Positions 12,320-41,122 of a DNA stretch of 64,000 nucleotides are shown one piece after another. Numbering within the stretch: the first letter of the stretch is position 1; the number at the start of each line of letters is the position of its first letter. Source of the stretch: an uncultured Candidatus Saccharibacteria bacterium (GTDB lineage Bacteria > Patescibacteriota > Saccharimonadia > Saccharimonadales > UBA10212); contig CAZETJ010000001.1 of NCBI GenBank assembly GCA_964514575.1, forward strand, positions 56,014-120,013. Direction: 5' to 3'. The translations under genes were made by a program, and so were the position numbers. The notes beneath the pieces were generated by a model, which worked only from the letters and a program-made list of their open reading frames with translations, had not been told where the DNA came from and did not search any database.

Positions 12320-13407
12320 CCGCCCAGAACCTGCTTATAAACTGCTAGGGTCTGCTCAGCCATGCGCCGCCAAGAGTACTTAGCAGCTTGGGTGCGGCCC
12401 TTTTTAATAAGCTGGTCTCGTAGGTCGCTAGACTCCAAAACATCGTTTATTTTGGCAGCTATATCGTGGGGGTCTTGCGGATCAAAGTAGTGGGCAGCCG
12501 AGCCATAAATTTCCGGCAAACAAGTAGCATTACTGGAAACAACCGGAGCGCCGTGGGCCATAGCCTCTAGCCCCGGCAGGCCGAAACCTTCGGATAGAGA
12601 AGGGAAAATATAGGCAGACGTCTGTTCGTAAAGCCAGCGTAACTGGCCTTCGGTGACAAAATCCGTAAAAACAACATTTGCGATACCGCCGTCACGGACT
12701 CTTTTTTCTATTTGCTCATAAAGCACATCTTTTTTGCCGGCTAATACTAACTGTAGGCTAGGCCAGTCCTTTTGTAACAACTGAAAGGCTTCTATTAGTC
12801 GCCAAAGGTTTTTGTGGGGCAGAGGCCGACCAACATACATAATGAATTTGCCAGCAACGACACCTTTAACGTACTTGGCAGGATCAGTTATTTGATCGGC
12901 GGCCAGATAGGTAACATGAATTTTTGATGGGTTAATGTGGGTGTAGTTGGCAATGTCCTGTTTTACGAACTTGGAGATCGTAAAAATAGCCTTAGATTTT
13001 CTAACTACCCATTGAACCACGCCGCGATAGACCCACTGTTTAAACTTAAACACCAAATAGTTTTTGGCAGGGTTGGTAAAACGGGCGGTGGTCAAATCAT
13101 GAATAGTGGTGACGGTTCTACCGAAGTAAAAAACTGGTTGGTGGGTCATTGTAAAGTGCACCAGATCCGGCTTAAACGAGTAGAGCTGAGAAGCCAGCTT
13201 GGTCTGCTCGCTCAGCGAGAACTCTTTGAAGTTCGATTCTCGAACCGCAAAGTCCGGCGTAGCTCGTTTAAAAAAGGCTACACGATGTGGTTTGGTATGG
13301 ATGACAATCTCGAATTCCGGTTTAAGTTCGTGCAGATTCTCAATCAGTTTATCGATATGACGGCCAGTGCTGGTACCGGATTCACGAGCCTCAATAACGA
13401 CTTTCAT
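12316..13407 (-). CDS. glycosyltransferase family 1 (GT4-like)
   Basis: C-terminal GT-B motif EGFGLPGLEAMAHGAPVVSS. Confidence 0.8.
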   Translation of the reverse strand: MKVVIEARESGTSTGRHIDKLIENLHELKPEFEIVIHTKPHRVAFFKRATPDFAVRESNFKEFSLSEQTKLASQLYSFKPDLVHFTMTHQPVFYFGRTVTTIHDLTTARFTNPAKNYLVFKFKQWVYRGVVQWVVRKSKAIFTISKFVKQDIANYTHINPSKIHVTYLAADQITDPAKYVKGVVAGKFIMYVGRPLPHKNLWRLIEAFQLLQKDWPSLQLVLAGKKDVLYEQIEKRVRDGGIANVVFTDFVTEGQLRWLYEQTSAYIFPSLSEGFGLPGLEAMAHGAPVVSSNATCLPEIYGSAAHYFDPQDPHDIAAKINDVLESSDLRDQLIKKGRTQAAKYSWRRMAEQTLAVYKQVLGG

Positions 13408-14783
13408 TTTAAAGCGCTTTGACGGGATTTATTGTCAGCAAAACTAGCTGTTAAGAGTAGCCCAACTACGATCCAAAGCCGGGTTAGCAATATAGAATGG
13501 AAGAAATTGCTCTGGACCAGCATACCAATCATTACCAGCGTCATAGCCGCCGCTTCTCCTTTCCAAGAGTTCTTAAATAAGCGGTACATAATCACAAGGA
13601 CTGCGATAACTAGCGGCGCAAAGGCCACAACTCCCAACAGGCCCAAGTCGACGAGCAAACCCAAAAAATCATTGTTGAAGGGCTGCAGTGAATCGGGATT
13701 AGCACCGTGGTTATATTTATCGAGATTTAATCTGATCCTGCTGTTGTAGCCGCCGACGCCCTGTAAAGGTTTTTCTTTAAAATAAGTAAAAGCCTTTGGC
13801 CAGAGCTTATAGCGGGTTTGGGCAGAGGCATCGAGCACATTTACGCCGTGGCCCGTAAATATTTCGACATTGCCTATACCGGAGCCAGAACCATTGATGG
13901 AGTGTTTAGGGATGGCTTTCGAAAGCGCCCCAGCAAAGCCGATTAAAACAAGTGTAGTGATGAGTCCAATCGTCCACCACCTTGCCATAAAAATCCAAAA
14001 ATCCTTGAGTTTATGGCGATTTCTCATACCCCAAATTAAAATAAGCCAACCCAGGGCAACGGCAATAATGGCGCCGCGTGCTATTAGAAGAAAGACTAAC
14101 GTTGTTAAAGAGCCAAATAGTAAAAGATGGGGTCGACTGCGGCGGAGCTTATTATCCCTCAAAAAATCAAATGTTAACAACCAAATCGGTATTAAAAGGT
14201 AATTCGCGAAGTAGAGGGGTTCAAGCGAAGTTGACTGTACCCGAGGGAAAACATAAGTTGAATATTGTGAAGTACAGCAATGTTGCAGGTCGGTCACTTT
14301 TGTTGAGATTCCAAATACATCGAAAAAGAACTGAAAGAAAGCATAGGCTACGACTATTGCGCTAACAACGTAAATTGTTTTCTTTACCAATAACCACAAT
14401 TGCTGAGGTCGTTCAGAAACTAGAACGAAGAAGCAAAACGCTCGTAGCGTCACTGACAGTAAGTCTTTCGTGGCCCCTAAGGTAAAAGATCGGTCTATCG
14501 CGTAGGTAGAACTAAGGGCATAAGCAGCAACCGGGAGAGCTAAAATAGTACCAAAAAAGAAGTACCGCCTAAGATCCCCAAAGCGACCAACTGACCAAAC
14601 GTTTAACAAACGCCCGCTTACAGCGATCAGTAGTAAAACCAAGGATATAAAACCTAGACTGAGCGGAACGTGATGTATGTATGGGAATCGGTCAATTGGC
14701 AAGAGCGCCAAAGTAATAACAACGCCCAGAAACTCCGAGTAATTAACAAGCCTGCGCCAGTACATTTTTGGGCTCTGCACCAT
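13404..14783 (-). CDS. O-antigen ligase/polymerase-like (Wzy_C domain) polytopic membrane protein
   Basis: ~12 predicted TM helices with a large periplasmic/external loop, as in WaaL/Wzy/PglL-type proteins; 4-nt overlap with the adjacent GT. Confidence 0.55.
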   Translation of the reverse strand: MVQSPKMYWRRLVNYSEFLGVVITLALLPIDRFPYIHHVPLSLGFISLVLLLIAVSGRLLNVWSVGRFGDLRRYFFFGTILALPVAAYALSSTYAIDRSFTLGATKDLLSVTLRAFCFFVLVSERPQQLWLLVKKTIYVVSAIVVAYAFFQFFFDVFGISTKVTDLQHCCTSQYSTYVFPRVQSTSLEPLYFANYLLIPIWLLTFDFLRDNKLRRSRPHLLLFGSLTTLVFLLIARGAIIAVALGWLILIWGMRNRHKLKDFWIFMARWWTIGLITTLVLIGFAGALSKAIPKHSINGSGSGIGNVEIFTGHGVNVLDASAQTRYKLWPKAFTYFKEKPLQGVGGYNSRIRLNLDKYNHGANPDSLQPFNNDFLGLLVDLGLLGVVAFAPLVIAVLVIMYRLFKNSWKGEAAAMTLVMIGMLVQSNFFHSILLTRLWIVVGLLLTASFADNKSRQSALK

Positions 14784-14852: not shown

Positions 14853-15884
14853 ATGCCCAAACAGCCAAGACGAGCACTAATTACCGGAATCACTGGGCAG
14901 GACGGTAGTTACCTGACCGAGCTGCTATTGAATAAAGGTTATGAAGTTTACGGCATTGTTAGACGATCGAGCTCTCTCAACACAGACCGCATTGACCATA
15001 TCTACCAGGATCCGCACGAAAAAAAGACCCGCCTTCAGCTCATATTCGGCGACCTAACCGACACTAGCACCGTTTATAATATTTTGACCCAAGTACAGCC
15101 AGATGAAGTTTACAATTTGGGCGCCCAGAGCCATGTGCGAGTGTCTTTTGAGCTGCCCGAATATACCGGCGATAGCGTTGGTCTGGGCGCAGTAAGGCTC
15201 TTGGAAGCTATACATCGCCTAGGCCTAAAAACCAAATATTATCAAGCTGGTTCCAGTGAGATGTTTGGCAAGGTTAGAGAAATTCCCCAAAATGAAAACA
15301 CGCCATTCTACCCGCGCTCTCCGTACTCTGTAGCTAAAGTTTATGCTCACTGGATCACCGTCAATTACCGCGAAAGCTACGACATGTTCGCCTGCAACGG
15401 AATTCTTTTTAACCACGAAAGTCCGCGCCGGGGCGAAACATTTGTAACCCGGAAAGTAACTCGAGCAATTGCTCGAATTTTGGCCGGGCTCCAAGACGAA
15501 ATCTATATGGGTAATCTAGATTCTAAGCGCGACTGGGGGTACGCCAAAGAGTACGTCGAAGCCATGTGGCTAATGCTCCAGCAGGAAAAACCTGACGATT
15601 ATGTTATCGCTACCGGCGAAACTCACTCAGTACGTGAATTTGTTGAAGAGGCCTTCAAGTTGGTCGGTTTAGATTGGAAAAAATACGTCAAGTTCGATAA
15701 GCGTTATTTGCGGCCGGCGGAAGTCGATGTGCTTATCGGAGACGCCAGCAAGGCCAAGAAAAAACTCGGTTGGAAACCAAAAACCACTTTTTCCGAACTG
15801 GTCAAAATTATGGTCGACGCCGATATTGCCGAGCTTGAAGACCAGCTTCAAGGAAAGGTAAAGCTTCGTCGAGAAGTGATATAG
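14853..15884 (+). CDS. gmd: GDP-mannose 4,6-dehydratase
   Basis: N-terminus [33 protein letters not shown] and a YxxxK catalytic region ([11 protein letters not shown]) are highly characteristic of Gmd; 343 aa. Confidence 0.9.
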
Positions 15885-27054: not shown

Positions 27055-28290
27055 CTAAGCTTTGTCCTGTTGGTAGGTAAAGTCAAAATGAGCTATTGCT
27101 GAGGTAGGCGGCTGCTTCTTCGTACTGTAGAACTCCCGATTGTCAATTTCTAGAAGTGCTCCGCCTTCTACAAGATCAAATATTTCAGAATTTTGTTCGT
27201 CACTAGCCAGAAATAGATCCAGGTAGTATTCTCCGCTTGCTAAATTAACACCCTCAACGTTCAAATAGAGATCGCCTTTTTTTTCGGCTAAATTAATTTG
27301 TTGGTCCAGAACAGTATTCGTAAGATTGGCCAGAGTATCTCCCTTTTGGTCCTTAATCGCGACAGACACCTTAATGTTATCAATGCTTTTACGCGACTTA
27401 TTTAGGTACGACAACTTTAGTTTCAGTGTCCTTTTGGGGGAGAGGAGCGTTTGGCAATTAGTAAAAATCACTTTTCCGCTGCCCTGACGATCCTGTCTTT
27501 TCTCAAGTGATTGTTCGGCCGAGGCCGCGGTACTTGCGGCATACTTGCGGGCTACCTCAGAAACCGGGCCATCCGCCCTAATCGATCCTTCGTTCAACAA
27601 GATCGCCCGACTGCACAGGTTTTGTATGGCTGATATGTTATGGCTTACAAACAAGACCGTTCGTCCCTCTCTGGCCACAGAGCTCATCTTACTTAAACTC
27701 TTTTTTTGAAACGCGGCATCACCTACAGCTAAAACTTCATCAATAATTAGAATCTCTGGTTCTAAATGAGCCGCTACGGCAAAAGCTAATCGCACATACA
27801 TCCCAGACGAGTAATACTTAACAGGCGTGTCTAAGAACTTTTCAACTTCGGAGAAAGCAACAATCTCATCGAACTTAGACTGGATCTCGCGCTTCTTCAT
27901 GCCCAGGATAGCACCGTTCAGAAGGATATTTTCGCGACCAGTTAATTCGGGGTGGAAACCCGTGCCTACCTCAAGCAGGCTAGCAACTTTTCCACGGATG
28001 ATAACTTCTCCATCGGTCGGCTCGACAATCCGCGAGAGGATCTTTAGCAGGGTAGATTTACCAGAGCCATTCTTACCTATAATTCCCACCACCTCACCTT
28101 TGCTAACATTAAAACTGACATCTTTTAGTGCCCAAAACTCTTCTTTCTCTTGTGTCCTCCCGGTCACCAGACTCGAGGGTTTTTTTAGAAGAGCACCGAG
28201 GTCTTCCCGGAGAGTGCGATAATTGGTCTTTTGCAGATGGCTAATCCGATACTTCTTGGATAGGTTCTTAACTTCAATAGTCGGTTTCAT
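27055..28290 (-). CDS. wzt: polysaccharide ABC exporter ATP-binding protein (Wzt/TagH-like) with C-terminal carbohydrate-binding extension
   Basis: Walker A GIIGKNGSGKSTLLKIL, ABC signature YSSGMYVRLAFAVA and Walker B ILIIDEVLAVGD; a ~150-aa C-terminal extension as in chain-terminus-recognising Wzt proteins. Confidence 0.85.
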   Translation of the reverse strand: MKPTIEVKNLSKKYRISHLQKTNYRTLREDLGALLKKPSSLVTGRTQEKEEFWALKDVSFNVSKGEVVGIIGKNGSGKSTLLKILSRIVEPTDGEVIIRGKVASLLEVGTGFHPELTGRENILLNGAILGMKKREIQSKFDEIVAFSEVEKFLDTPVKYYSSGMYVRLAFAVAAHLEPEILIIDEVLAVGDAAFQKKSLSKMSSVAREGRTVLFVSHNISAIQNLCSRAILLNEGSIRADGPVSEVARKYAASTAASAEQSLEKRQDRQGSGKVIFTNCQTLLSPKRTLKLKLSYLNKSRKSIDNIKVSVAIKDQKGDTLANLTNTVLDQQINLAEKKGDLYLNVEGVNLASGEYYLDLFLASDEQNSEIFDLVEGGALLEIDNREFYSTKKQPPTSAIAHFDFTYQQDKA

Positions 28291-28338: not shown

Positions 28339-29199
28339 CTACTTGAGTTCATACTTGCCCCTATACTCTCTAAATAGATGATCGATAGACTTGCGAGCTT
28401 CAACTGGACTCAACTCTAGAAGAAAATCAACGTTCTTATTCCACGGAAATTTTATTTCTCGATCCTTTTTGCCGGCATAGCCTTTCTGGAAAGCTGCCTC
28501 CGGTGTAAGCGATCCAAACGGATTAAGCTCAGAGGGAATCAAGAATGCATTATTGTAGTGAAGTTCAACAAGGTCATATTTGTAACGGCTTGCAAGCGTG
28601 TGCAATTGGCAGATACTTTGCCCGTAAAAGTGATCGCCTGACCACCAGTGACCAGGGATCCACTTCACTGTAAACTTTAAGGGCGGTGGGATTTTTTCGT
28701 TTATTTCGGCGCAGATTAAAGCCGGTCGAAACTCACTTAGAATTTTTGCCAAGACGAAGTAATCGTAGCTATCAATATCAAGGCTTAAAAACCCAAATTT
28801 CTTTGGAGTCCCGTGAGCCTTCAGCAGGGGAATAACATTCTCGGGTGTTATTTTGTTGCGAGATAGACGGGCGCCAGAGAATAACGCATATGACGTCGCT
28901 AACTTTGCAAACTTTTCACCGTCGAATTCAGCGGCTAGCCCTTCCCAACCTTTTTCAAACAGCGCTCTCGTATTCGACGCGCTGGTACCATCACTGGCCG
29001 CTATATCCACACAAAACTTTTGATGAGCGATCTTCCTAAGATATTTTTGGGCCACTTTATCTTCGTCAAGACCAGAATAGCTCTGAGCTCCGGGCAGAGA
29101 TTCTTGGCTGGCAGCCTTCGATCCTGAAGAGCCAAATGTCAGCCGAGAGATTTTCCCCTTACTTTTTTTGACAAATCTGGTCTTGAGTTGATGTCTCAT
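28339..29199 (-). CDS. hypothetical protein, possibly FkbM-like methyltransferase
   Basis: Weak VDIAASDGTS motif resembling the FkbM VDxGAN region; located between wzt and wzm. Confidence 0.35.
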   Translation of the reverse strand: MRHQLKTRFVKKSKGKISRLTFGSSGSKAASQESLPGAQSYSGLDEDKVAQKYLRKIAHQKFCVDIAASDGTSASNTRALFEKGWEGLAAEFDGEKFAKLATSYALFSGARLSRNKITPENVIPLLKAHGTPKKFGFLSLDIDSYDYFVLAKILSEFRPALICAEINEKIPPPLKFTVKWIPGHWWSGDHFYGQSICQLHTLASRYKYDLVELHYNNAFLIPSELNPFGSLTPEAAFQKGYAGKKDREIKFPWNKNVDFLLELSPVEARKSIDHLFREYRGKYELK

Positions 29200-29210: not shown

Positions 29211-30041
29211 TTATATGATGTCCGCAAACTGTCTTTCGGTGCGCTTAAAATATGTAATGCCGATTACCAAAATGACAGATGCGGACAAAGTCGAAATACC
29301 CAACTGAGCCCAGTTGATTATGCCTTGGTGTAGAAGGCCTGCGCGCATTGTATTAATCACGCTCGATACCGGATTCAAGCTGAGCAGCCACTGGTATTTA
29401 TGTGCTATGAGACTCACGGGATAAATCACTGGTGTTAAAAAGAGACCGATTTGAATGATGAAGGGCACAATCGAGCGAACATCTCTGTATTTAACATTTA
29501 AAGATCCAAAAAGTATGCCAGCTCCCAGGGCGGTAATAAGGCAAAGTAGTAACATCGGGATAACCAACAAAAGACCCTCTAGTCCGGGAGCTATGTGGTA
29601 GTAGAAGGCTATGCCAGCATAAACAATCGAGGCAAAGAAAAAGTCCACCAAGCCAAGCAATGTCGCCGACATCGGAATAATAATTCGGGGGAAGTAAATT
29701 TTGGTTATAACGCCTTGATTGCCTACAAGGCTATTGCTAATCTGGCCGAAGGCCGAAGCAAAGTAGTTCCAAAAGAGTAGCCCGGTGTAAGAAAAAATAG
29801 CATAGGGCACTGCGCCGGACTTTATGCCCGCTACATGGTTAAAGAATAGGGTGAATATCACCATCGTAGTGAAGGGCTGAATTATAGCCCAGGAAGCACC
29901 TAGTAGAGTTTGTTTATATCGTACCTTTACGTCGCGCCAGGTGAAGTAATAAAAAAGTTCGCGATAATTCCATAACTCTCTCCAGTTTATACGCGCCCTT
30001 TTTTTAGGTTGAATTAGTATTTCCATAAAAACGGGTCCCAA
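29211..30041 (-). CDS. wzm: polysaccharide ABC exporter permease (ABC-2 type, Wzm-like)
   Basis: N-terminus ELWNYRELFYYFTWRDVKVRYKQTLLGASWAIIQP is typical of Wzm/TagG; 6 TM helices. Confidence 0.8.
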   Translation of the reverse strand: MGPVFMEILIQPKKRARINWRELWNYRELFYYFTWRDVKVRYKQTLLGASWAIIQPFTTMVIFTLFFNHVAGIKSGAVPYAIFSYTGLLFWNYFASAFGQISNSLVGNQGVITKIYFPRIIIPMSATLLGLVDFFFASIVYAGIAFYYHIAPGLEGLLLVIPMLLLCLITALGAGILFGSLNVKYRDVRSIVPFIIQIGLFLTPVIYPVSLIAHKYQWLLSLNPVSSVINTMRAGLLHQGIINWAQLGISTLSASVILVIGITYFKRTERQFADII

Positions 30042-31111: not shown

Positions 31112-33190
31112 CTAAAGTTGACCGTTGGTATTAGAGGCCCAGGTCGGATGATTGCCGCTGTCATAAATAACTAAATTGCCGTCAGTTTGTATCACTAAAG
31201 TAGAGATTCCTTTGCCCGCTGTGTTGGATGCCCAATATGGTCTGTTCTGGGCATCATAAAGGACTAAATTGCCATCGCTTTGCATGGAAGCTCTTGTCAC
31301 CGGTCTACCATCCGTTCGGCTGGACCATAGTGGACGGTTTATTGAGTAAAGCACCAAATTACCATCACTCTGCATGATCAATTTGAAACGTCCATCTGTC
31401 GAAACTAAGAACTGGCCAGAATTCAAACTTTGATTTGTTCCCAGCGTAGTGCTTGTGCCTGAAGTATCAAAATTAACTGTCGTAAAGTAATTGAGCCCGA
31501 GATTATTCATCCACGTGATGCCATCAACCACCGGCGTAAAATATTCTCTGAAAGTGCCCGTCTGACTGGGCTTATACCAAAACTCAAAAGTAGCTGTACC
31601 ACCAGGCGCTACGGAAGCTTCATCCATCGTTGCTGCCCGGTTGCAGCTCACCCACGTTGGACTATCGGACATATCACAAAAACTGCTGGTACGGTCTTGA
31701 GGGTTAGAGACGCCTAGGCGCGTGGGATTTGCCCCGCTATTAAGCCAGGTTATGTTGCCTGTATTTTTGGCCTTAACTACGAGATAGACTTTATTGCCGA
31801 GTGTCAGAGCAGAGGAATCAGCCCAAACGCTCTTACTAGCGTCCGTAAAGGATGCTTGGCTGACAATGGACCATGTATAAATCGACTGGACTACAGTGTG
31901 AAAATAAAGACCTGGGTCATTCATCCAGCTCAGGCCATCAGTGACGAGGCTAAAATGCTCGTTAAAAGTGCCGCCCGCATTTGGCGCCTTATACCAAAAC
32001 TCAAAAGTAGCTGTACCACCAGGCGCTACGGAAGCTTCATCCATCGTTGCTGCCCGGTTGCAGCTCACCCACGTTGGACTATCGGACATATCACAAAAAC
32101 TGCTGGTACGGTCTTGAGGTGAAGTGGTGGCCAGGCGTACCGGGTTGGTGCTGTTAGACCAGGTAGTATCGCCTGTATTCCTGGCTGTGACAATAGCATA
32201 AACTTTCTGCCCAGGGGCTAGACTAGAAGAATCAGCCCAAGCCGTATGACTCGAGTCGGTATAAGTATTCTGGGATAAAACCGACCAACTATAAATATCG
32301 AACACGCTACCGAACCAAGACTGGAAAATATTATCGAAGCTCTGATTGCCAGAAAAATGAGGTGTGTAGCGATAGAGAGCTGCCGTTGCACCCGTATCTA
32401 TATGTATAGCTGTACTATCGATTGTCCAAGAGCCATCGTAAAAATTGGTGGGCCCACCCGAGCAAACGGCTCTGAAGCCTTGAGTCATCGGCCCGCTATA
32501 ACAAGTGCTGGGATCGTCCGAGTTATCCCAAACATTACCAGAATTAGGATAATTCGTAAGTTGTACGTCCCAGCTAGTGTTTCCCTCCGAGCGCTGCTCG
32601 CTGAATTTAAGGGACCAGCTCGCGACGATTACCTGTCTTGAAAAACCTACCATCGGCTGATGGCCTGACTGTGTCTGCACGCAAGTTCCACTTACGCTTG
32701 TTATGGGGCTACCGTTAATACTGTAAAGCTCGAAACCTGAGTAGTCGCTCAGCACGGTATTGTCTGGGCAGTTGTAGCCCATAGCTGCGGAATAACGCAG
32801 CGTACTACAACCTGAAGCGCCACTCACAAGAGATTCCTCTTTCTGAAGGGTGGACAATATGACCCGCGGATTAAGGCCATAGACGTGGGCGGTGTGTGCA
32901 ATAACCGTACCGGCGGACACATCGCCCCCAAATGAGAAAAGACCGCTTGAAGCAGAGTAGCCGGTAACGTCTGGCGCAGCAAAACCGTGAGCTGTACTGA
33001 TACAGCTGGTGCTACCAAAGTTGTTATTAAGCCATGTGTCAATATCCGAAGCGGACATAGAACTAGAGTTGTCAAAAATGCCATCATCCATGACATTGTT
33101 ATTGTTATAGGCTAGGGCGTTGCTCATCAACAGCACTAAGGCGCACATAAATACAAAAAGACCCAGGATAAGGCTGTATGCTTTTTTCAC
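31112..33190 (-). CDS. secreted multi-domain protein: signal peptide, tandem Ig-like (NBR1/CARDB-like) repeats, C-terminal tandem bulb-type (B-) lectin repeats
   Basis: Signal peptide MKKAYSLILGLFVFMCALVLLMSNALA. The ~139-aa module (…NPxRL…SPQDRTSSFCDMSDSPTWVSCNRAATMDEASVAPGGTATFEFWYK) occurs twice. The C-terminus has three QxDGNLVLY repeats (QSDGNLVLYSINRPLW…, MQSDGNLVLYDAQNRPYW…, IQTDGNLVIYDSGNHPTW), the bulb-lectin signature. Confidence 0.7.
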   Translation of the reverse strand: MKKAYSLILGLFVFMCALVLLMSNALAYNNNNVMDDGIFDNSSSMSASDIDTWLNNNFGSTSCISTAHGFAAPDVTGYSASSGLFSFGGDVSAGTVIAHTAHVYGLNPRVILSTLQKEESLVSGASGCSTLRYSAAMGYNCPDNTVLSDYSGFELYSINGSPITSVSGTCVQTQSGHQPMVGFSRQVIVASWSLKFSEQRSEGNTSWDVQLTNYPNSGNVWDNSDDPSTCYSGPMTQGFRAVCSGGPTNFYDGSWTIDSTAIHIDTGATAALYRYTPHFSGNQSFDNIFQSWFGSVFDIYSWSVLSQNTYTDSSHTAWADSSSLAPGQKVYAIVTARNTGDTTWSNSTNPVRLATTSPQDRTSSFCDMSDSPTWVSCNRAATMDEASVAPGGTATFEFWYKAPNAGGTFNEHFSLVTDGLSWMNDPGLYFHTVVQSIYTWSIVSQASFTDASKSVWADSSALTLGNKVYLVVKAKNTGNITWLNSGANPTRLGVSNPQDRTSSFCDMSDSPTWVSCNRAATMDEASVAPGGTATFEFWYKPSQTGTFREYFTPVVDGITWMNNLGLNYFTTVNFDTSGTSTTLGTNQSLNSGQFLVSTDGRFKLIMQSDGNLVLYSINRPLWSSRTDGRPVTRASMQSDGNLVLYDAQNRPYWASNTAGKGISTLVIQTDGNLVIYDSGNHPTWASNTNGQL
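31571..32119. repeat. two 132-nt perfectly identical direct repeats (31571-31702 and 31988-32119), period 417 nt, in-frame inside the lectin gene
   Basis: Base-by-base comparison: cttataccaaaactcaaaagtagctgtaccacc…ctgctggtacggtcttgagg is identical in both copies; flanking sequence diverges. Confidence 0.9.
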
Positions 33191-33729
33191 GGTACCACCA
33201 GCGGCTGAGAATCAGACGCAGTTTTAGTTTGGCTACTTAAACTGGCAAAGGCTGAAATTGTCCAAGAACCACTGCCGAAACCAGCTGTGTTTACATCCCA
33301 GTACCAGTACGTAGCGCCATTACTATCTGCAGTTTGGGTGTCAAGTTTCTTCACCTCGCTGCCTTTAGCGAATTGAATATAGCAGGTTGCCCCGGGAGAC
33401 GTATTACAGACAGAAGTCTCGTTTGTCGGCGTGCCATTGCCGGGATGATGGTTGCTAACAAAACCGCCACTGGGTGCTATCAGTGAACCGCTTGTCGGGA
33501 TTGCGGACGTTAACGATTTAGCCTCGCCGCTGGGTGCTAAGTTAGCCGAAGGGCTATTTTGTCCGCCAGCGCTGGAAGCCACTGTTTTTGTCGGCGACGT
33601 GCTGGGGATCGTTACCTGAACTTTGTGGTAACGCTCAAAATATAATAATCCGGCGAACAGAATCAGTATCATTGACACGGCATAGTATGTCTTATGGTTG
33701 AGTTTGTCTAAAATTGAGCGTCTAGGCAT
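33187..33729 (-). CDS. hypothetical secreted/membrane-anchored protein
   Basis: N-terminal TM (YYAVSMILILFAGLLYF); Ser/Thr/Pro-rich linker; 4-nt overlap with the lectin gene, so likely co-transcribed. Confidence 0.5.
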   Translation of the reverse strand: MPRRSILDKLNHKTYYAVSMILILFAGLLYFERYHKVQVTIPSTSPTKTVASSAGGQNSPSANLAPSGEAKSLTSAIPTSGSLIAPSGGFVSNHHPGNGTPTNETSVCNTSPGATCYIQFAKGSEVKKLDTQTADSNGATYWYWDVNTAGFGSGSWTISAFASLSSQTKTASDSQPLVVP

Positions 33730-34736: not shown

Positions 34737-35222
34737 ATGAGTAAGGACTGGGGCGCGCCAATTGTCAGCTTTGAAGAATTTGCTGAACTTCGGCCAAAAT
34801 TAGGAAAAATTGTCGCAACTTCCGGCGGTTTTGATCCAATCCATCCTGGGCATATCAGTTGTATTATCGAAAGTAAGAAGTTTGGCGATACAGTAGTGGT
34901 TATTGTCAACGGCGATGCCTTTTTGACGGCCAAGAAAGGCCGCCCGTTTCAAAATCTTAAAACCCGTTGCCAGATAGTCAGTGGTATCAGAGGGGTAGAC
35001 TACGTTATACCTTTTGAGATAGCAGGCGACCAAACGGTCAACAGAGCCTTGGAGCTACTGAAGCCGGATAGTTTCACAAAAGGCGGCGACCGGGTGGACG
35101 AATCGAGCATCCCGGAGTGGGAGACATGCCAGAAGTACGACATAAAAATTATCAGCGGGGTTGGTGAGGATAAACTTTGGTCGAGCAGTCAATTTTTACA
35201 CGATTGGACCAACGGCCGGTGA
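34737..35222 (+). CDS. cytidylyl/adenylyltransferase-like nucleotidyltransferase (TagD / HldE-domain-II-like)
   Basis: SGGFDPIHPGHISCI matches the (H/T)xGH motif of the CTP_transf_like family; ~160 aa. Confidence 0.7.
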   Translation: MSKDWGAPIVSFEEFAELRPKLGKIVATSGGFDPIHPGHISCIIESKKFGDTVVVIVNGDAFLTAKKGRPFQNLKTRCQIVSGIRGVDYVIPFEIAGDQTVNRALELLKPDSFTKGGDRVDESSIPEWETCQKYDIKIISGVGEDKLWSSSQFLHDWTNGR

Positions 35223-35989
35223 AGCGTAGGGTCATCGCTTTCGACCTGGATGGTACGCTGGCGCCGAGCAAATCGCTTCTGCCTGATCGGATGAGCATTG
35301 TCCTAAGCGATTTGTTGGGAAAATACGAAGTTCTGGTGATGAGTGGGGGTAGGTTCGAACAATTTGAGAAGCAACTGCTAGCTAATCTTAAAATTGAACC
35401 CGAAAAACTTGCCAAACTACACTTAATGCCGACCTGTGGTACACGATATTATCGCTTTCGAAATAACGGCTGGCAAAAACAGTATGCCGAAGATTTATCG
35501 GGGACGGAAAAAGCTAAAATAGTCCAAGAATTGAATAAAGCGGTTGCTCATTTTGGGCTTTCTACGAAGAAAACCTATGGTCCGACGATAGAGGACCGGG
35601 AAAGTCAGATCAGCTGGTCGGCTCTCGGCCAGGATATAGTCGAAGTACTGGGTGAGGAGGGCATTAAATTAAAAGAAGCCTGGGACCCGGATATGTCTAA
35701 AAAGCTAACACTAGTTAATTATCTGACTCCTTTACTTCCTGAATTCGAGGTGCGCGCCGGCGGCAGTACTACCGTTGATATTACAAAAAAAGGTATCGAT
35801 AAAGCCTACGGGATGAAAAAGATGCTGGACATGCTAAAACTCTCTAAAGACGATGTGCTATTCATCGGCGACAGACTGGAAGAGGGTGGTAACGACTACC
35901 CGGTTAAAGCCATGGGCATTGATTGTATGCAGATATCGGACTGGCAGGAGACGGCTTTAGTCATCGAGGCTGTCCTTCGGACCTCATAA
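35177..35989 (+). CDS. HAD-IIB family hydrolase (sugar-phosphate phosphatase / phosphomannomutase-like)
   Basis: Motif I VIAFDLDGTLAP, a cap domain and motif IV GDRLEEGGNDYP; overlaps the upstream nucleotidyltransferase by 46 nt. Confidence 0.7.
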   Translation: MVEQSIFTRLDQRPVKRRVIAFDLDGTLAPSKSLLPDRMSIVLSDLLGKYEVLVMSGGRFEQFEKQLLANLKIEPEKLAKLHLMPTCGTRYYRFRNNGWQKQYAEDLSGTEKAKIVQELNKAVAHFGLSTKKTYGPTIEDRESQISWSALGQDIVEVLGEEGIKLKEAWDPDMSKKLTLVNYLTPLLPEFEVRAGGSTTVDITKKGIDKAYGMKKMLDMLKLSKDDVLFIGDRLEEGGNDYPVKAMGIDCMQISDWQETALVIEAVLRTS

Positions 35990-37393: not shown

Positions 37394-38839
37394 TTAAACC
37401 GCTCCGCTACGCTTTAAAACAGCACGGACAGTTTTAATCAAAATAACTAAATCTAGCCAGATACTCCAATTCTGGACATAGTAAAGATCAAGTTTACGGC
37501 GCTCCTCAAAATCTATATCGCGCCGGCCAGAAACTTGGGCCAGGCCAGTAAGACCCGATTTGACACTTAAAATAGCGTGCCTTTTTGCGTAGATACCCAG
37601 TTCGGCGGGAATCAGTGCCCGTGGTCCGACCAAACTAATATCGCCGCGTACGACATTGAGAAGCTGAGGCAGTTCATCCAGGCTAGTACGTCTTAAAAAT
37701 CGGCCTAGCCGGCTGATACGCGGGTCATTTGGCAAGCGGTCGCCGCCTTGGCGGTATTGCTTAATCAGCTCAGGCCGGCCCATTTTAGTGAAGCCTTCTT
37801 CCGGGCTCATATCGGTATAGGCTCGCTTCATACTGCGGAATTTATAAATCCTAACTCTAGTATTAAAGCGGCTCAGTCGAATTTCTCGGTAAAAAACTGG
37901 CCCGCCGGGATCAGACAGTTTTTCGGCGACGGCGACCAACAGCATGAAAGGCAAGCCGACCAACAGCATTACGCCGCCGACTACAATGTCCATCATTCGC
38001 TTAACTATTCGACCCCAGCCGATCAAAGCGGTTTGGTGGACGGCGATGACCGGAACCGAACCCCGGAAAAGCTCGACGGCAATGTTGCCAACGAACAACT
38101 CGCTGTTACCAGGTACGAAACGATAAGCTACGTGCTTAGTCTGGGCGTACTCTAGAACTTCATTATTAAACTCGTTATCGGCGTAAAGCTCTGTTTGGAC
38201 GATGCCGTGGATATCACCAGAATTTAAGGCCTTGATGGCCTTATCAAAAGTTTTAAAAAATGGAATGTGAGGATAGCGTTTAGCGACCTCGCCATGTCCG
38301 CCAACCACGCCAACTATCCGATAGCCAGAGATGTGACGGTCGGCCAAAACATCCACCAACTGGCGGCCAACATGAGTGTTACCAACTAGCAATAAGTTGG
38401 TTATGCCAATGTCGTATCGGAACAAAACACTACGCACGTAGCGGGCAGTGTTGCGAAAAACTAGGAGTAAAACAAACCCTAGCAGAAAGCCATAAACGGG
38501 CACTAACTTAGAAGGAAAAACCACGCGATCCGAGACGTAAGCGTAGCTGGCCACGAACAGTAGACCCACGAAAGAGCCGATCAGCAGCCGTCCAGCTTCG
38601 ACAAAGCGCTTTTCGTGGATTGAACTGGTGTAAAGGCCCAGCAACCCAAAAATTAGCAACCAAAAAGGAGTCAAAATTAAAAAAATTCCCAAATAGGTAC
38701 TGGCCGCGATTGGATGAGCCACTGGCACGTTGCTAAGCGGACCGCGCAGGGCATAGGCACCGGCAAAAGCCGCCACCAACGCCAAAAAATCGCCCACCAT
38801 CAAAAGCAAGCCATAGATGAGCGAAGCGTTACTTTTCAT
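37394..38839 (-). CDS. undecaprenyl-phosphate sugar-1-phosphate transferase (WbaP/WcaJ-type initiating enzyme)
   Basis: N-terminal 4-5 TM helices plus the C-terminal 'bacterial sugar transferase' domain (DELPQLLNVVRGDISLVGPRA…KSGLTGLAQVSGRRD…). Confidence 0.85.
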   Translation of the reverse strand: MKSNASLIYGLLLMVGDFLALVAAFAGAYALRGPLSNVPVAHPIAASTYLGIFLILTPFWLLIFGLLGLYTSSIHEKRFVEAGRLLIGSFVGLLFVASYAYVSDRVVFPSKLVPVYGFLLGFVLLLVFRNTARYVRSVLFRYDIGITNLLLVGNTHVGRQLVDVLADRHISGYRIVGVVGGHGEVAKRYPHIPFFKTFDKAIKALNSGDIHGIVQTELYADNEFNNEVLEYAQTKHVAYRFVPGNSELFVGNIAVELFRGSVPVIAVHQTALIGWGRIVKRMMDIVVGGVMLLVGLPFMLLVAVAEKLSDPGGPVFYREIRLSRFNTRVRIYKFRSMKRAYTDMSPEEGFTKMGRPELIKQYRQGGDRLPNDPRISRLGRFLRRTSLDELPQLLNVVRGDISLVGPRALIPAELGIYAKRHAILSVKSGLTGLAQVSGRRDIDFEERRKLDLYYVQNWSIWLDLVILIKTVRAVLKRSGAV

Positions 38840-38859: not shown

Positions 38860-40188
38860 ATGGACGCAGACAAAGGTGGTAGCCGGCTTGCAAGACAACT
38901 GTCGATCGTTGTCGCTTTAATTTTGATCTTACTGCCATTTGATGAACTTTTGACTGTCTGGACGGCCAGCAGATTTAATCATTTGGACCTTTTCCACATC
39001 TGGAAAGAAATTCTCATCACCATAATGGTTGCACCAACAGTTTGGCTGGCTTTACGGCACGGCCTGCTCAAAAAGACTTTTTTTAAGTCCTGGCTATTTT
39101 TATTAATTGCTGCTTATGGACTGTTGCATTTGATTTTAGGAATGTGGGCCTTTCACGACAGACAGGTCAACGAGACGGCTTTGATATACGGGCTAATAAT
39201 CAATCTGCGGTTTCTTGGGTTCTTCCTGGTTTGCTTAATGCTTTCAGCGCTGCATCCCTACCTACGACGACACTGGAAGTTTATATTGCTGGCTCCGGCC
39301 AGTGTAGCGGTCTTCTTCGGGCTGATTCAAAAACTTATTTTACCGACCGATTTTTTGAAGCACTTTGGCTACGGTCCAAAAACTATTCCGGCTTATCAAA
39401 CCGTTGACTCCAATCTAGACTATCGCCGCATTCAGTCCAGCTTACGCGGCGCCAATCCTTTCGGAGCTTATCTAACTTTTATTATCCCCGGTTTTATATT
39501 AAGTTTGGCTAAACGCCGTGGCTTGCAACTACTGGCCGTAGCCGGAGCTTTAGTTGTTTTGTTCTACACATATTCGCGCAGCGCCTGGGTAGGATTGGCT
39601 ATTAGCTTAGTGATCCTGGGCTGGTTGTCGCTTAAGAATTTAAGCGGTCGTTGGGCTATAGTCGCGGTGATTGTCTTGGCAGGCGGTTCAATTGGAATCT
39701 ATAGTCTTCGCTCAAATCAGGTAATCCAAGATGCATTGTTGCATACCAGTGTTAGCTCAACTTCACCGCAAAGCTCCAATGCTCTAAGAAGCATAGCTAT
39801 TAAAAATGGTATCCGCGACGTCGTGCATCAGCCCTTGGGCCGCGGACCGGGCACGGCTGGTCCGGCCAGCTTTCGTAGCAACCATCCGGCTCGCATAGCT
39901 GAGGATTATTATCTGCAGATCGGGCAGGAAGTCGGTATACTTGGGCTGGCCATCTTCTTAGCAATAAACATGCAGGTCGCCCTAAGTCTGTGGTCGCAGA
40001 GGCAGGATATATTGGCCCGGATCTTGCTGGCCGCCTTGGCGGGCATTTGTTTTATTAATTTAGTCTCACATGCTTGGACGGACGATACTCTCAGCCTGCT
40101 GTGGTGGGGGTTGGCTGGTGTCTCGCTTGGTCCTGTTATACTGCAGGGTAGGCAAGGTCGAAATGGAAGAATTCAAAAAAGCGCATAA
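38860..40188 (+). CDS. O-antigen ligase/polymerase-like (Wzy_C) polytopic membrane protein
   Basis: ~11-12 TM helices with a large loop; second Wzy_C-like protein of the locus. Confidence 0.55.
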   Translation: MDADKGGSRLARQLSIVVALILILLPFDELLTVWTASRFNHLDLFHIWKEILITIMVAPTVWLALRHGLLKKTFFKSWLFLLIAAYGLLHLILGMWAFHDRQVNETALIYGLIINLRFLGFFLVCLMLSALHPYLRRHWKFILLAPASVAVFFGLIQKLILPTDFLKHFGYGPKTIPAYQTVDSNLDYRRIQSSLRGANPFGAYLTFIIPGFILSLAKRRGLQLLAVAGALVVLFYTYSRSAWVGLAISLVILGWLSLKNLSGRWAIVAVIVLAGGSIGIYSLRSNQVIQDALLHTSVSSTSPQSSNALRSIAIKNGIRDVVHQPLGRGPGTAGPASFRSNHPARIAEDYYLQIGQEVGILGLAIFLAINMQVALSLWSQRQDILARILLAALAGICFINLVSHAWTDDTLSLLWWGLAGVSLGPVILQGRQGRNGRIQKSA

Positions 40189-40654: not shown

Positions 40655-41122
40655 ATGGCCGAGACAGTCCGCCCAACCAAAAAACAACGCGAACTGCTGA
40701 CGTTTATTGAGGAGTTTATTGCCGAGCACGGTTACAGTCCGAGCTACCGGGAGATTATGAAAGGCATGGACTATAACTCGGTAGCCACCGTCAGCCTGCA
40801 TATCAACAACCTGATCAAGCGCGGCCACCTGGCCAAACGCGATCACTCGGCTCGCTCGCTGGAGCCAGTAAAAGGCGTTAGTGATGAACCGGTGCGCGTT
40901 AAGCAGCTCAAGGCCAGTGAAGAAAAATGGCTGGTCGGCAAAGTCGAACTTTATTTTAAAGAAGCCGAAGAGGCAGTAGTTCTAGACGAGAAAGAACTTG
41001 ACCGACTCTATGTGTTGGTTGGCGCGCTAAAAGTACTTGGTTTAGACGGTGCCGCCCAAGCTTACATTCCACGCCTGACGGCGCTCAAAACGAAGGCCGC
41101 TGATCGTAGTTACACGGTCTAA
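40655..41122 (+). CDS. LexA-N-terminal-like winged-helix DNA-binding protein lacking an S24 peptidase domain
   Basis: [51 protein letters not shown] matches the LexA DNA-binding domain; the C-terminal ~80 aa are coiled/charged with no Ser-Lys dyad context. Confidence 0.55.

Follow-up and report, generated by a model that had tools for sequence, protein, structure and literature searches.

Architecture of the secreted protein

The window analysed here is a stretch of 64,000 nucleotides (nt; GC content, 48%) on contig CAZETJ010000001.1 of an uncultured Candidatus Saccharibacteria bacterium. The gene under study (31112-33190, minus strand) contains two neighbouring modules that share an exactly identical 44-codon core, and comparisons within and between species showed that recurrent gene conversion inside the gene keeps these cores identical. 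An earlier note on this DNA had taken the open reading frame (ORF) to encode a secreted protein, which was confirmed; in the ORF list it has a GTG start, a stop codon at 31112-31114, and a product of 692 amino acids (aa). The identical protein was present on 13 public contigs. Its homologs, at least 491 in number, were mostly found in metagenome-assembled genomes (MAGs) of Saccharibacteria or Saccharimonadales, and some in Berkelbacteria, Nealsonbacteria, and Parcubacteria. The closest species representative, a peat MAG (L014), shared only 57% identity with it, and no second copy of the gene was found elsewhere in the window.

The translation starts with a signal peptide (aa 1-27; 33110-33190), with MKK followed by a hydrophobic core and a putative cleavage site between ALA and YN. 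It is followed by an N-terminal domain (aa 28-298; 32297-33109), an FW/NBR1-type Ig-like module 1 (aa 299-436; 31883-32296), a module 2 of the same type (aa 437-573; 31472-31882), and a single bulb-type lectin domain (aa 574-692; 31115-31471), all encoded on the minus strand. The signal peptide, the Ig-like modules, and the bulb lectin had been recognised in the earlier note, but the 271-aa N-terminal domain had been overlooked. This domain is the largest and most conserved one of the protein and probably carries its activity.

The Ig-like nature of both modules was borne out, and they could be assigned to the FW/NBR1 type. Module 1 matched the Pfam family PF16158 (N_BRCA1_IG) at aa 319-418 with 32.3 bits, against a cut-off of 28. 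Module 2 was 67-69% identical to module 1 at the aa level, and both were detected by a module hidden Markov model (HMM). In an AlphaFold2 (AF2) model of aa 296-692, with a predicted local distance difference test (pLDDT) score of 90.9, the modules were all-beta; 4ole was not among the top 50 Foldseek matches of this model. The FW domain is an Ig-like beta-sandwich, which is also found in diverse bacterial proteins (PMC9233695). Its characterised members are cytosolic protein-binding modules of autophagy receptors, whereas the modules described here are extracellular, occur in tandem (1-5 copies), and are joined to wall-enzyme-like domains, as in the relative P0055, where FW modules of the same type come after a bona fide Amidase_2 (N-acetylmuramoyl-L-alanine amidase) domain.

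The assignment of the C-terminus as a beta-prism II lectin of the monocot mannose-binding type is solid. The domain scored 33.2 bits against PF01453 (B_lectin; cut-off, 32.4), and phmmer searches of PDB returned SCAfet (1dlp; E = 6.8e-28), putidacin L1 (E = 2e-26), and the daffodil lectin (1npl; E = 1.6e-23), together with about 24 more solved lectins at E <1e-12 besides 1dlp. All three QxDxNxVxY motifs were intact, namely QSDGNLVLY at aa 607-615 (31346-31372), QSDGNLVLY at aa 637-645 (31256-31282), and QTDGNLVIY at aa 668-676 (31163-31189); they were recognised from the translation, the conserved columns, and repeat family D2, and their Q, D, N, and V columns were invariant across 26 homologs. 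The AF2 model had a pLDDT of ~90-95 over this domain and superposed on the mannose-binding beta-prism II lectins 4tkc, 1xd6, and 1xd5 with template modelling (TM) scores of 0.87-0.89 and root mean square deviations (rmsd) of 1.2-1.6 Å (TM 0.88 and rmsd 1.2 Å for 4tkc; Foldseek). The fold that the note had expected was thus obtained. The motifs of its three lectin repeats are real, but together these repeats make up one beta-prism II domain, as its three subdomains.

The likeness to bulb-type lectins extends to bacterial ones, such as the Mycobacterium smegmatis LysM-lectin MSL (4oit) and Streptomyces UmbA4 (9oee), and covers the C-terminal 119 aa (E = 1e-23 to 1e-28). MSL and UmbA4 resemble the protein described here in that each is a larger, secreted protein directed to the envelope and has the lectin as one of its modules. 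The difference is that the lectin here is fused to FW modules and an unannotated N-terminal domain and is encoded in a glycan locus.

Identical cores of the FW modules and gene conversion

The tract at 31988-32119 in module 1 (aa 359-402; module columns 60-104; QDRTSSFCDMSDSPTWVSCNRAATMDEASVAPGGTATFEFWYK) and that at 31571-31702 in module 2 (aa 498-541) were identical over exactly 132 nt, in frame, at a spacing of 417 nt (139 codons). The perfect identity reported in the earlier note was thereby reproduced, and so was the divergence of the flanks. The identity broke off sharply at either end; the N-side and C-side flanks of the modules were only 62% and 58% identical at the nt level, and 47% and 42% identical at third positions in a codon alignment. 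At this flank-level similarity, the chance of a run of 132 matches is ~1e-26. In the AF2 model, the tract spans a long loop bracketed by two Cys, plus two beta-strands. Tandem Repeats Finder reported no array in the region, because similarity within the 417-nt unit is limited to the core and the rest is too diverged. The Rfam scan of the window gave a tRNA-Asn only, so nothing RNA-related accounts for the identical tract. The possibility that the tract is the target of a diversity-generating retroelement, which the note had already thought unlikely, was rejected on the ground that the copies lack any difference and are both coding in the same gene; no reverse transcriptase search was made.

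The history of the tract became apparent from the closest distinct ortholog, P0003 (71% aa identity), which was recovered twice independently (L002 from JGI and L003 from ENA). In both assemblies, the P0003 gene contained a separate exact repeat, 135 nt long and likewise spaced by 417 nt, which started at the same codon as the window tract (module column 60, 'QDR') and ended one codon later. The tracts of the two species differed from each other at ~20% of nt, with a third-position identity of 57%, yet the identity within each genome was 100%. Therefore, the tracts were homogenised after the split of the species, and this happened in both lineages. Outside the tract, the relation was opposite. 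In each species, a module was 73-83% identical (nt) to its ortholog and only 54-62% identical to its own neighbour; cross-comparisons of non-orthologous modules gave 56-66%, against 73-83% for orthologous ones; and the N-part of module 1 was 93% identical (aa) between the two species. These comparisons show the two FW modules to be old paralogs that, as far as their sequences tell, are functionally differentiated. The ongoing gene conversion that the note had suggested is borne out by this pattern. In the JGI sample 3300028800 (L007 and L002), the window strain and the species with the 71% ortholog coexist, each with its own homogenised core.

We propose that conversion would nucleate in the best-conserved stretch of the module, and that the diverged, separately selected flanks would block its extension. 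Most simply, conversion is a by-product of similar DNA lying in tandem. Concerted evolution of intragenic repeats by gene conversion is general in repeat-containing bacterial surface proteins. The present case agrees with it in that paralogs are identical within a genome and diverged between species, synonymous sites are homogenised, and the gene is a mosaic with a variable repeat number. It differs in that only a 44-codon core is homogenised, with the same start codon in two species, and in that the flanks remain distinct between the modules and conserved between orthologs. Ordinary concerted evolution accounts for the repeat, which by itself reveals no new mechanism.

Many relatives of the gene were shown to have undergone homogenisation of the core, too. 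Of the 84 non-redundant related loci, 20 had exact direct repeats of 40 nt or more, all within the repeat region of the gene, and none was found in the several kb of flank examined per locus; ten loci had exact tracts of at least 100 nt, with a maximum of 231 nt. When the tracts were set against the module HMM, 21 of 26 lay inside FW modules at module-period spacing, and the remaining 5 were outside detected modules or in a locus without any module (L086). Fourteen of the 21 FW-module tracts, those of Berkelbacteria included, overlapped module columns 70-100; other positions exist as well, e.g., columns 3-55 in L025. Many relatives had long residue runs identical between their own modules, and the mean within-protein identity between modules was 62% in the core and 52-54% in the flanks. 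Two N-domain proteins carried other C-terminal repeats outside FW modules, one with a 171-nt period and 119 nt exact (L044, 4181-4640) and one with a 690-nt spacing and 231 nt exact (L086, 4626-5546).

The number of modules varied across the family. When the module HMM was run on the 120 best homologs, one, two, three, four, and five FW modules were counted in 11, 31, 59, 16, and 3 proteins, respectively. The FW and lectin modules often totalled three (3+0, 59 proteins; 2+1, 22 proteins), which suggests that they have equivalent binding or spacer roles. In P0011 (912 aa, on a 22-kb NCBI contig), module 2 equals module 4 and module 3 equals module 5 at 100% protein identity; such a pattern indicates, from the protein sequence, that a two-module block was duplicated very recently.

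A form with one module was also encountered for the gene itself. A 5190-bp MEGAHIT contig (L001) from the sibling sample ERZ27245407 encodes P0002, a protein of 553 aa that equals the window protein less exactly 139 aa. L001 is 100.000% identical to the window on either side, and the two alignments overlap by the exact 132-nt repeat, as expected from recombination between the two cores. The identical cores could thus provide the substrate for a homologous deletion yielding an in-frame, chimeric one-module protein. Since 10 of the 120 top relatives have an N-domain, a single FW module, and a lectin as their fixed architecture, a product of the P0002 type is, judged by these architectures, plausibly functional. 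Occasional deletion of a module is therefore likely. Because the deletion drops 285 nt of unique sequence and no repeat remains, it is irreversible. Of the alleles with one or three copies that the note had proposed to look for, the one-module allele was seen on this contig, but neither junction had a match (0 each) when JGI metagenome contigs were searched with 172-nt junction-specific patterns.

Recurrent conversion has to be weighed against other origins of the identical pair. The perfect identity of the copies could also be explained by a very recent partial duplication, either of the 132-nt segment or of a whole module whose flanks then diverged fast. The note had named a very recent duplication as one of two options, and this did not hold, because the modules are nearer to their orthologs than to each other. 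Both have clear orthologs in the P0003 species, which is near synonymous saturation relative to the window, that species has its own, different identical pair, and a flank divergence of ~40% cannot be younger than a tract with zero differences; we thus consider this origin very improbable. We give almost no credence to an assembly artefact, i.e., a mis-join or consensus collapse that disguises diverged copies as identical. It is true that the data are all short-read metagenome assemblies and that a repeat of 132 nt is near the largest MEGAHIT k-mer (141). However, two pipelines (ENA MEGAHIT and JGI) recovered the two-copy form from several samples, in 13 contigs that reach 213 kb, and it is therefore not an artefact of assembly; the seven of these contigs that were compared as DNA showed 0-1 single-nucleotide polymorphism per 5-8 kb, and an equivalent tract was found twice independently in the ortholog. 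The last alternative is programmed phase variation, the copy-number switching put forward in the note, in which the identical cores let a population switch among one-, two-, and three-module forms. The exact in-frame one-module allele assembled in ERZ27245407, the module number of 1-5 in the family, and the perfectly duplicated block of P0011 speak for it. Nevertheless, 13 two-module contigs stand against one one-module contig, the JGI contigs contain neither junction, and no reversion can follow once the unique sequence is lost. Moreover, the tract positions vary among lineages, as would be expected from passive conversion but not from a dedicated switch. Phase variation is accordingly regarded as improbable, and recurrent conversion with occasional deletion is retained.

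Partner gene and glycan locus

A gene for a 180-aa protein (33187-33729, minus strand) lies directly beside the large gene, and its stop codon overlaps the GTG start of the latter (GTGA). The 4-nt overlap given in the note is real, but this partner is the upstream and not the next gene, since both genes are on the minus strand. The partner protein consists of an N-terminal membrane anchor, a Ser/Thr/Pro linker, and a beta domain of ~85 aa with two Cys, and it had no Pfam or NCBIfam match. A promoter and terminator scan gave promoter matches no better than chance, among which was one TG-extended -10 candidate upstream of the partner ORF.

The pair is embedded in a locus for ABC-transporter-dependent glycan biosynthesis, which extends over ~12.3-40.2 kb of the window (12316-40188; Pfam scans). 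The locus includes genes for a GDP-mannose 4,6-dehydratase (GMD; 14853-15884; 490 bits), a Wzt with Wzt_C (27055-28290), a Wzm (29211-30041), and a Bac_transf protein (37394-38839), and many GT1, GT2, and GT4 genes and methyltransferases. The functional link to this locus that the note had drawn was supported by synteny in each of the four inspected relatives, the most distant at 31% identity. The partner is directly upstream of the large gene in L002 (the 71% ortholog) and in L011, L012, and L013, and the pair is conserved in relatives at 54%, 53%, and 31% identity. In L011, L012, and L013, where the flanking DNA suffices, the pair is inside a Wzm/Wzt (with Wzt_C) locus that holds GT2, GT4, methyltransferase, and GDP-mannose pathway genes.

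Further features were observed in and around the locus of the window. Wzy_C or O-antigen-ligase-like genes at 13404-14783 (minus strand) and 38860-40188 (plus strand) bracket it, which is unusual for a Wzm/Wzt pathway. Between the Wzm and Wzt genes, there is a 286-aa ORF (28339-29199, minus strand) without a Pfam or NCBIfam match, and an ORF equal to it in length and position exists in L012 (12887-13747). A cytidylyltransferase-like gene (34737-35222, plus strand) and a HAD/PMM-like one (35177-35989, plus strand) overlap by 46 nt if the TTG start is used; public gene calls place the start differently (256 aa versus 270 aa). A gene for a LexA-DNA-binding-domain protein (40655-41122, plus strand) directly adjoins the locus.

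The pair was found outside Patescibacteria as well. On contigs of 69-71% GC assigned to Iamiaceae or Actinomycetota bins (L079, 2277-4371; L081, 1717-3808; also L083 and L090), a cassette consists of a small protein or lipoprotein with an SVC.TSPGATC motif and an N-domain protein; the partner is upstream in L079 and L081 and has a lipobox in L081. The N-domain proteins of these contigs end in three DUF4214 rather than in FW or lectin modules, and a GT4 gene then follows. Members of the family thus exist beyond Patescibacteria. The constant unit is the N-domain with its partner, and the C-terminal modules (FW, lectin, fn3, and DUF4214) are exchangeable.

The N-terminal domain and the role of the protein

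The AF2 model of the N-domain had a pLDDT of 96.4 and a predicted TM score (pTM) of 0.93. A profile search at E <= 1e-3 collected 4498 clusters at 50% identity, in which the domain always begins at about residue 30 of proteins of 308-1116 aa; some members (308-326 aa) have little or no sequence beyond it, and Pfam scans of the longer ones showed no informative additional catalytic domain. Sequence and profile searches of Pfam, NCBIfam, PHROGs, and PDB yielded no usable match for the domain. The weak Foldseek lists from PDB and BFVD, in which no entry was significant, were dominated by wall hydrolases of the lysozyme superfamily, comprising GH73 autolysins, GH23, g-type (GEWL) lysozymes, lytic transglycosylases, phage glucosaminidases, and tail lysins. 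Glu118, in a TLQKE motif (codon at 32837-32839), was the sole invariant acidic residue of the domain in alignments of 50 and 12 sequences, in which aromatic residues were invariant too. This residue, which is a candidate catalytic acid, closes helix 81-92 of the AF2 model at its C-terminus.

Taken as a whole, we explain the protein as a Sec-secreted envelope protein with converted FW cores and an N-domain enzyme tethered to wall glycan, an account in which our joint confidence is somewhat above even. The N-domain would be the active part, possibly a divergent lysozyme-like glycan hydrolase or transglycosylase acting via Glu118. The FW modules and the lectin would serve as interchangeable binding or spacer modules, and they would hold the enzyme on a wall glycopolymer that contains mannose or 6-deoxyhexose and is produced by the surrounding GMD locus. 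The protein is accordingly most likely an enzyme that acts in association with wall glycan, with the lectin and FW modules as its tether. Among Pseudomonas bacteriocins, bulb lectins bind D-rhamnose; an example, the pyocin L1 complex with D-rhamnose, was among the structural matches of the lectin. D-rhamnose is a GMD-dependent product, and its polymer is exported by Wzm/Wzt. Given both the D-rhamnose-binding relatives and this GMD/Wzm/Wzt origin, we reasonably infer, by analogy, that the lectin would bind the mannose- or 6-deoxyhexose-containing polymer of its own locus.

The modular Gram-positive wall hydrolases, such as LytA with its choline-binding repeats and Atl/AtlE with GH73 and wall-binding repeats, offer a parallel. 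They likewise combine a signal peptide, a catalytic-type domain, and tandem binding modules in variable number, and the N-domain weakly resembles GH73/GH23 lysin folds, though not significantly. The protein described here differs from them in that it has no significant homology to them, uses FW modules and a bulb lectin, and comes with a small membrane-protein partner in a Wzm/Wzt locus.

Several points weigh against the tethered-enzyme account. The N-domain had no significant Foldseek match (best E = 0.6 in PDB and 0.043 in BFVD), the profile searches of PDB, Pfam, and PHROGs with it were empty, and hhalign of its profile against E. coli FlgJ (GH73) gave a probability of 0.2%. The related bulb lectins bind mannose or D-rhamnose, any ligand of the lectin or the FW modules here is putative, and sequence alone cannot separate the binding of self-glycan from that of host-glycan. 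In UmbA4, the contacts with the glycopolymer lie on the beta-propeller and not on the bulb lectin (PMC13274773). As for the repeats, the tract boundaries shared by two species could reflect selection, besides the limits of homology, and the one-module allele stands on a single MEGAHIT contig of 5190 bp, i.e., 1 of 14 contigs.

The main rival is a host-directed adhesin or lysin that the epibiont would release or display, and of which the lectin and FW modules would bind mannose-rich glycans of an actinobacterial host while the N-domain opens the host wall. Cultivated Saccharibacteria are epibionts of Actinobacteria, host wall glycans affect their binding, and the binding of TM7x was approximately halved by soluble mannose and glucose and nearly abolished by rhamnose (PMC11623550). 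In addition, host glycans have been proposed as the targets of essential envelope proteins that contain glycan-binding domains (PMC10633639), and a mannose-type lectin together with a lysin-like fold signal would fit such a role. However, the gene is within its own Wzm/Wzt locus in the inspected relatives and is coupled to a membrane-anchored partner, and the cassette also occurs in free-living-type, high-GC Actinomycetota beside a GT4 gene. The own glycan locus and the Actinomycetota cassette favour a housekeeping envelope role over a parasitism-specific one, and we therefore judge the host-directed role unlikely, though still worth serious consideration. A lectin-like bacteriocin of the LlpA, putidacin, or pyocin L type, which would kill competitors, was suggested by the top NCBIfam match (LLB_putidacin; E = 4.7e-38) and by the presence of LlpA and pyocin L1 among the structural matches. 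Nevertheless, the score for NF033557 was 131 bits against a cut-off of 275, with one lectin domain matched. The known bacteriocins consist of tandem lectin domains without others, whereas the single lectin here is appended to the C-terminus of a 692-aa protein and is exchanged for FW modules between lineages. A bacteriocin is thus very unlikely, and the tethered wall-glycan enzyme remains the account that we prefer.

Going further, we would suggest, with little confidence, that the N-domain and its partner form a previously unrecognised extracytoplasmic enzyme pair common to Patescibacteria and Actinomycetota, which would process, trim, or attach ABC-exported wall glycopolymers on the cell surface. 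The swappable C-terminal modules would read the polymer of each lineage, and core-restricted conversion would keep the modules tuned to one ligand.

For the study of repeats, this gene provides a clean natural case of core-restricted concerted evolution, together with a practical warning that the module number in such genes may vary through assembly errors or through real polymorphism. Of greater interest are the unannotated N-domain and the partner cassette, found in the glycan loci of two phyla. Most Saccharibacteria and other Patescibacteria have not been cultured, and the construction of their envelope and their contact with hosts are poorly understood. The secreted family of the gene is very large (~4500 clusters at 50% identity), its main domain is without annotation or a significant structural relative, and the cassette is thus a concrete candidate for an enzyme associated with wall glycan, both in these bacteria and in some Actinomycetota.

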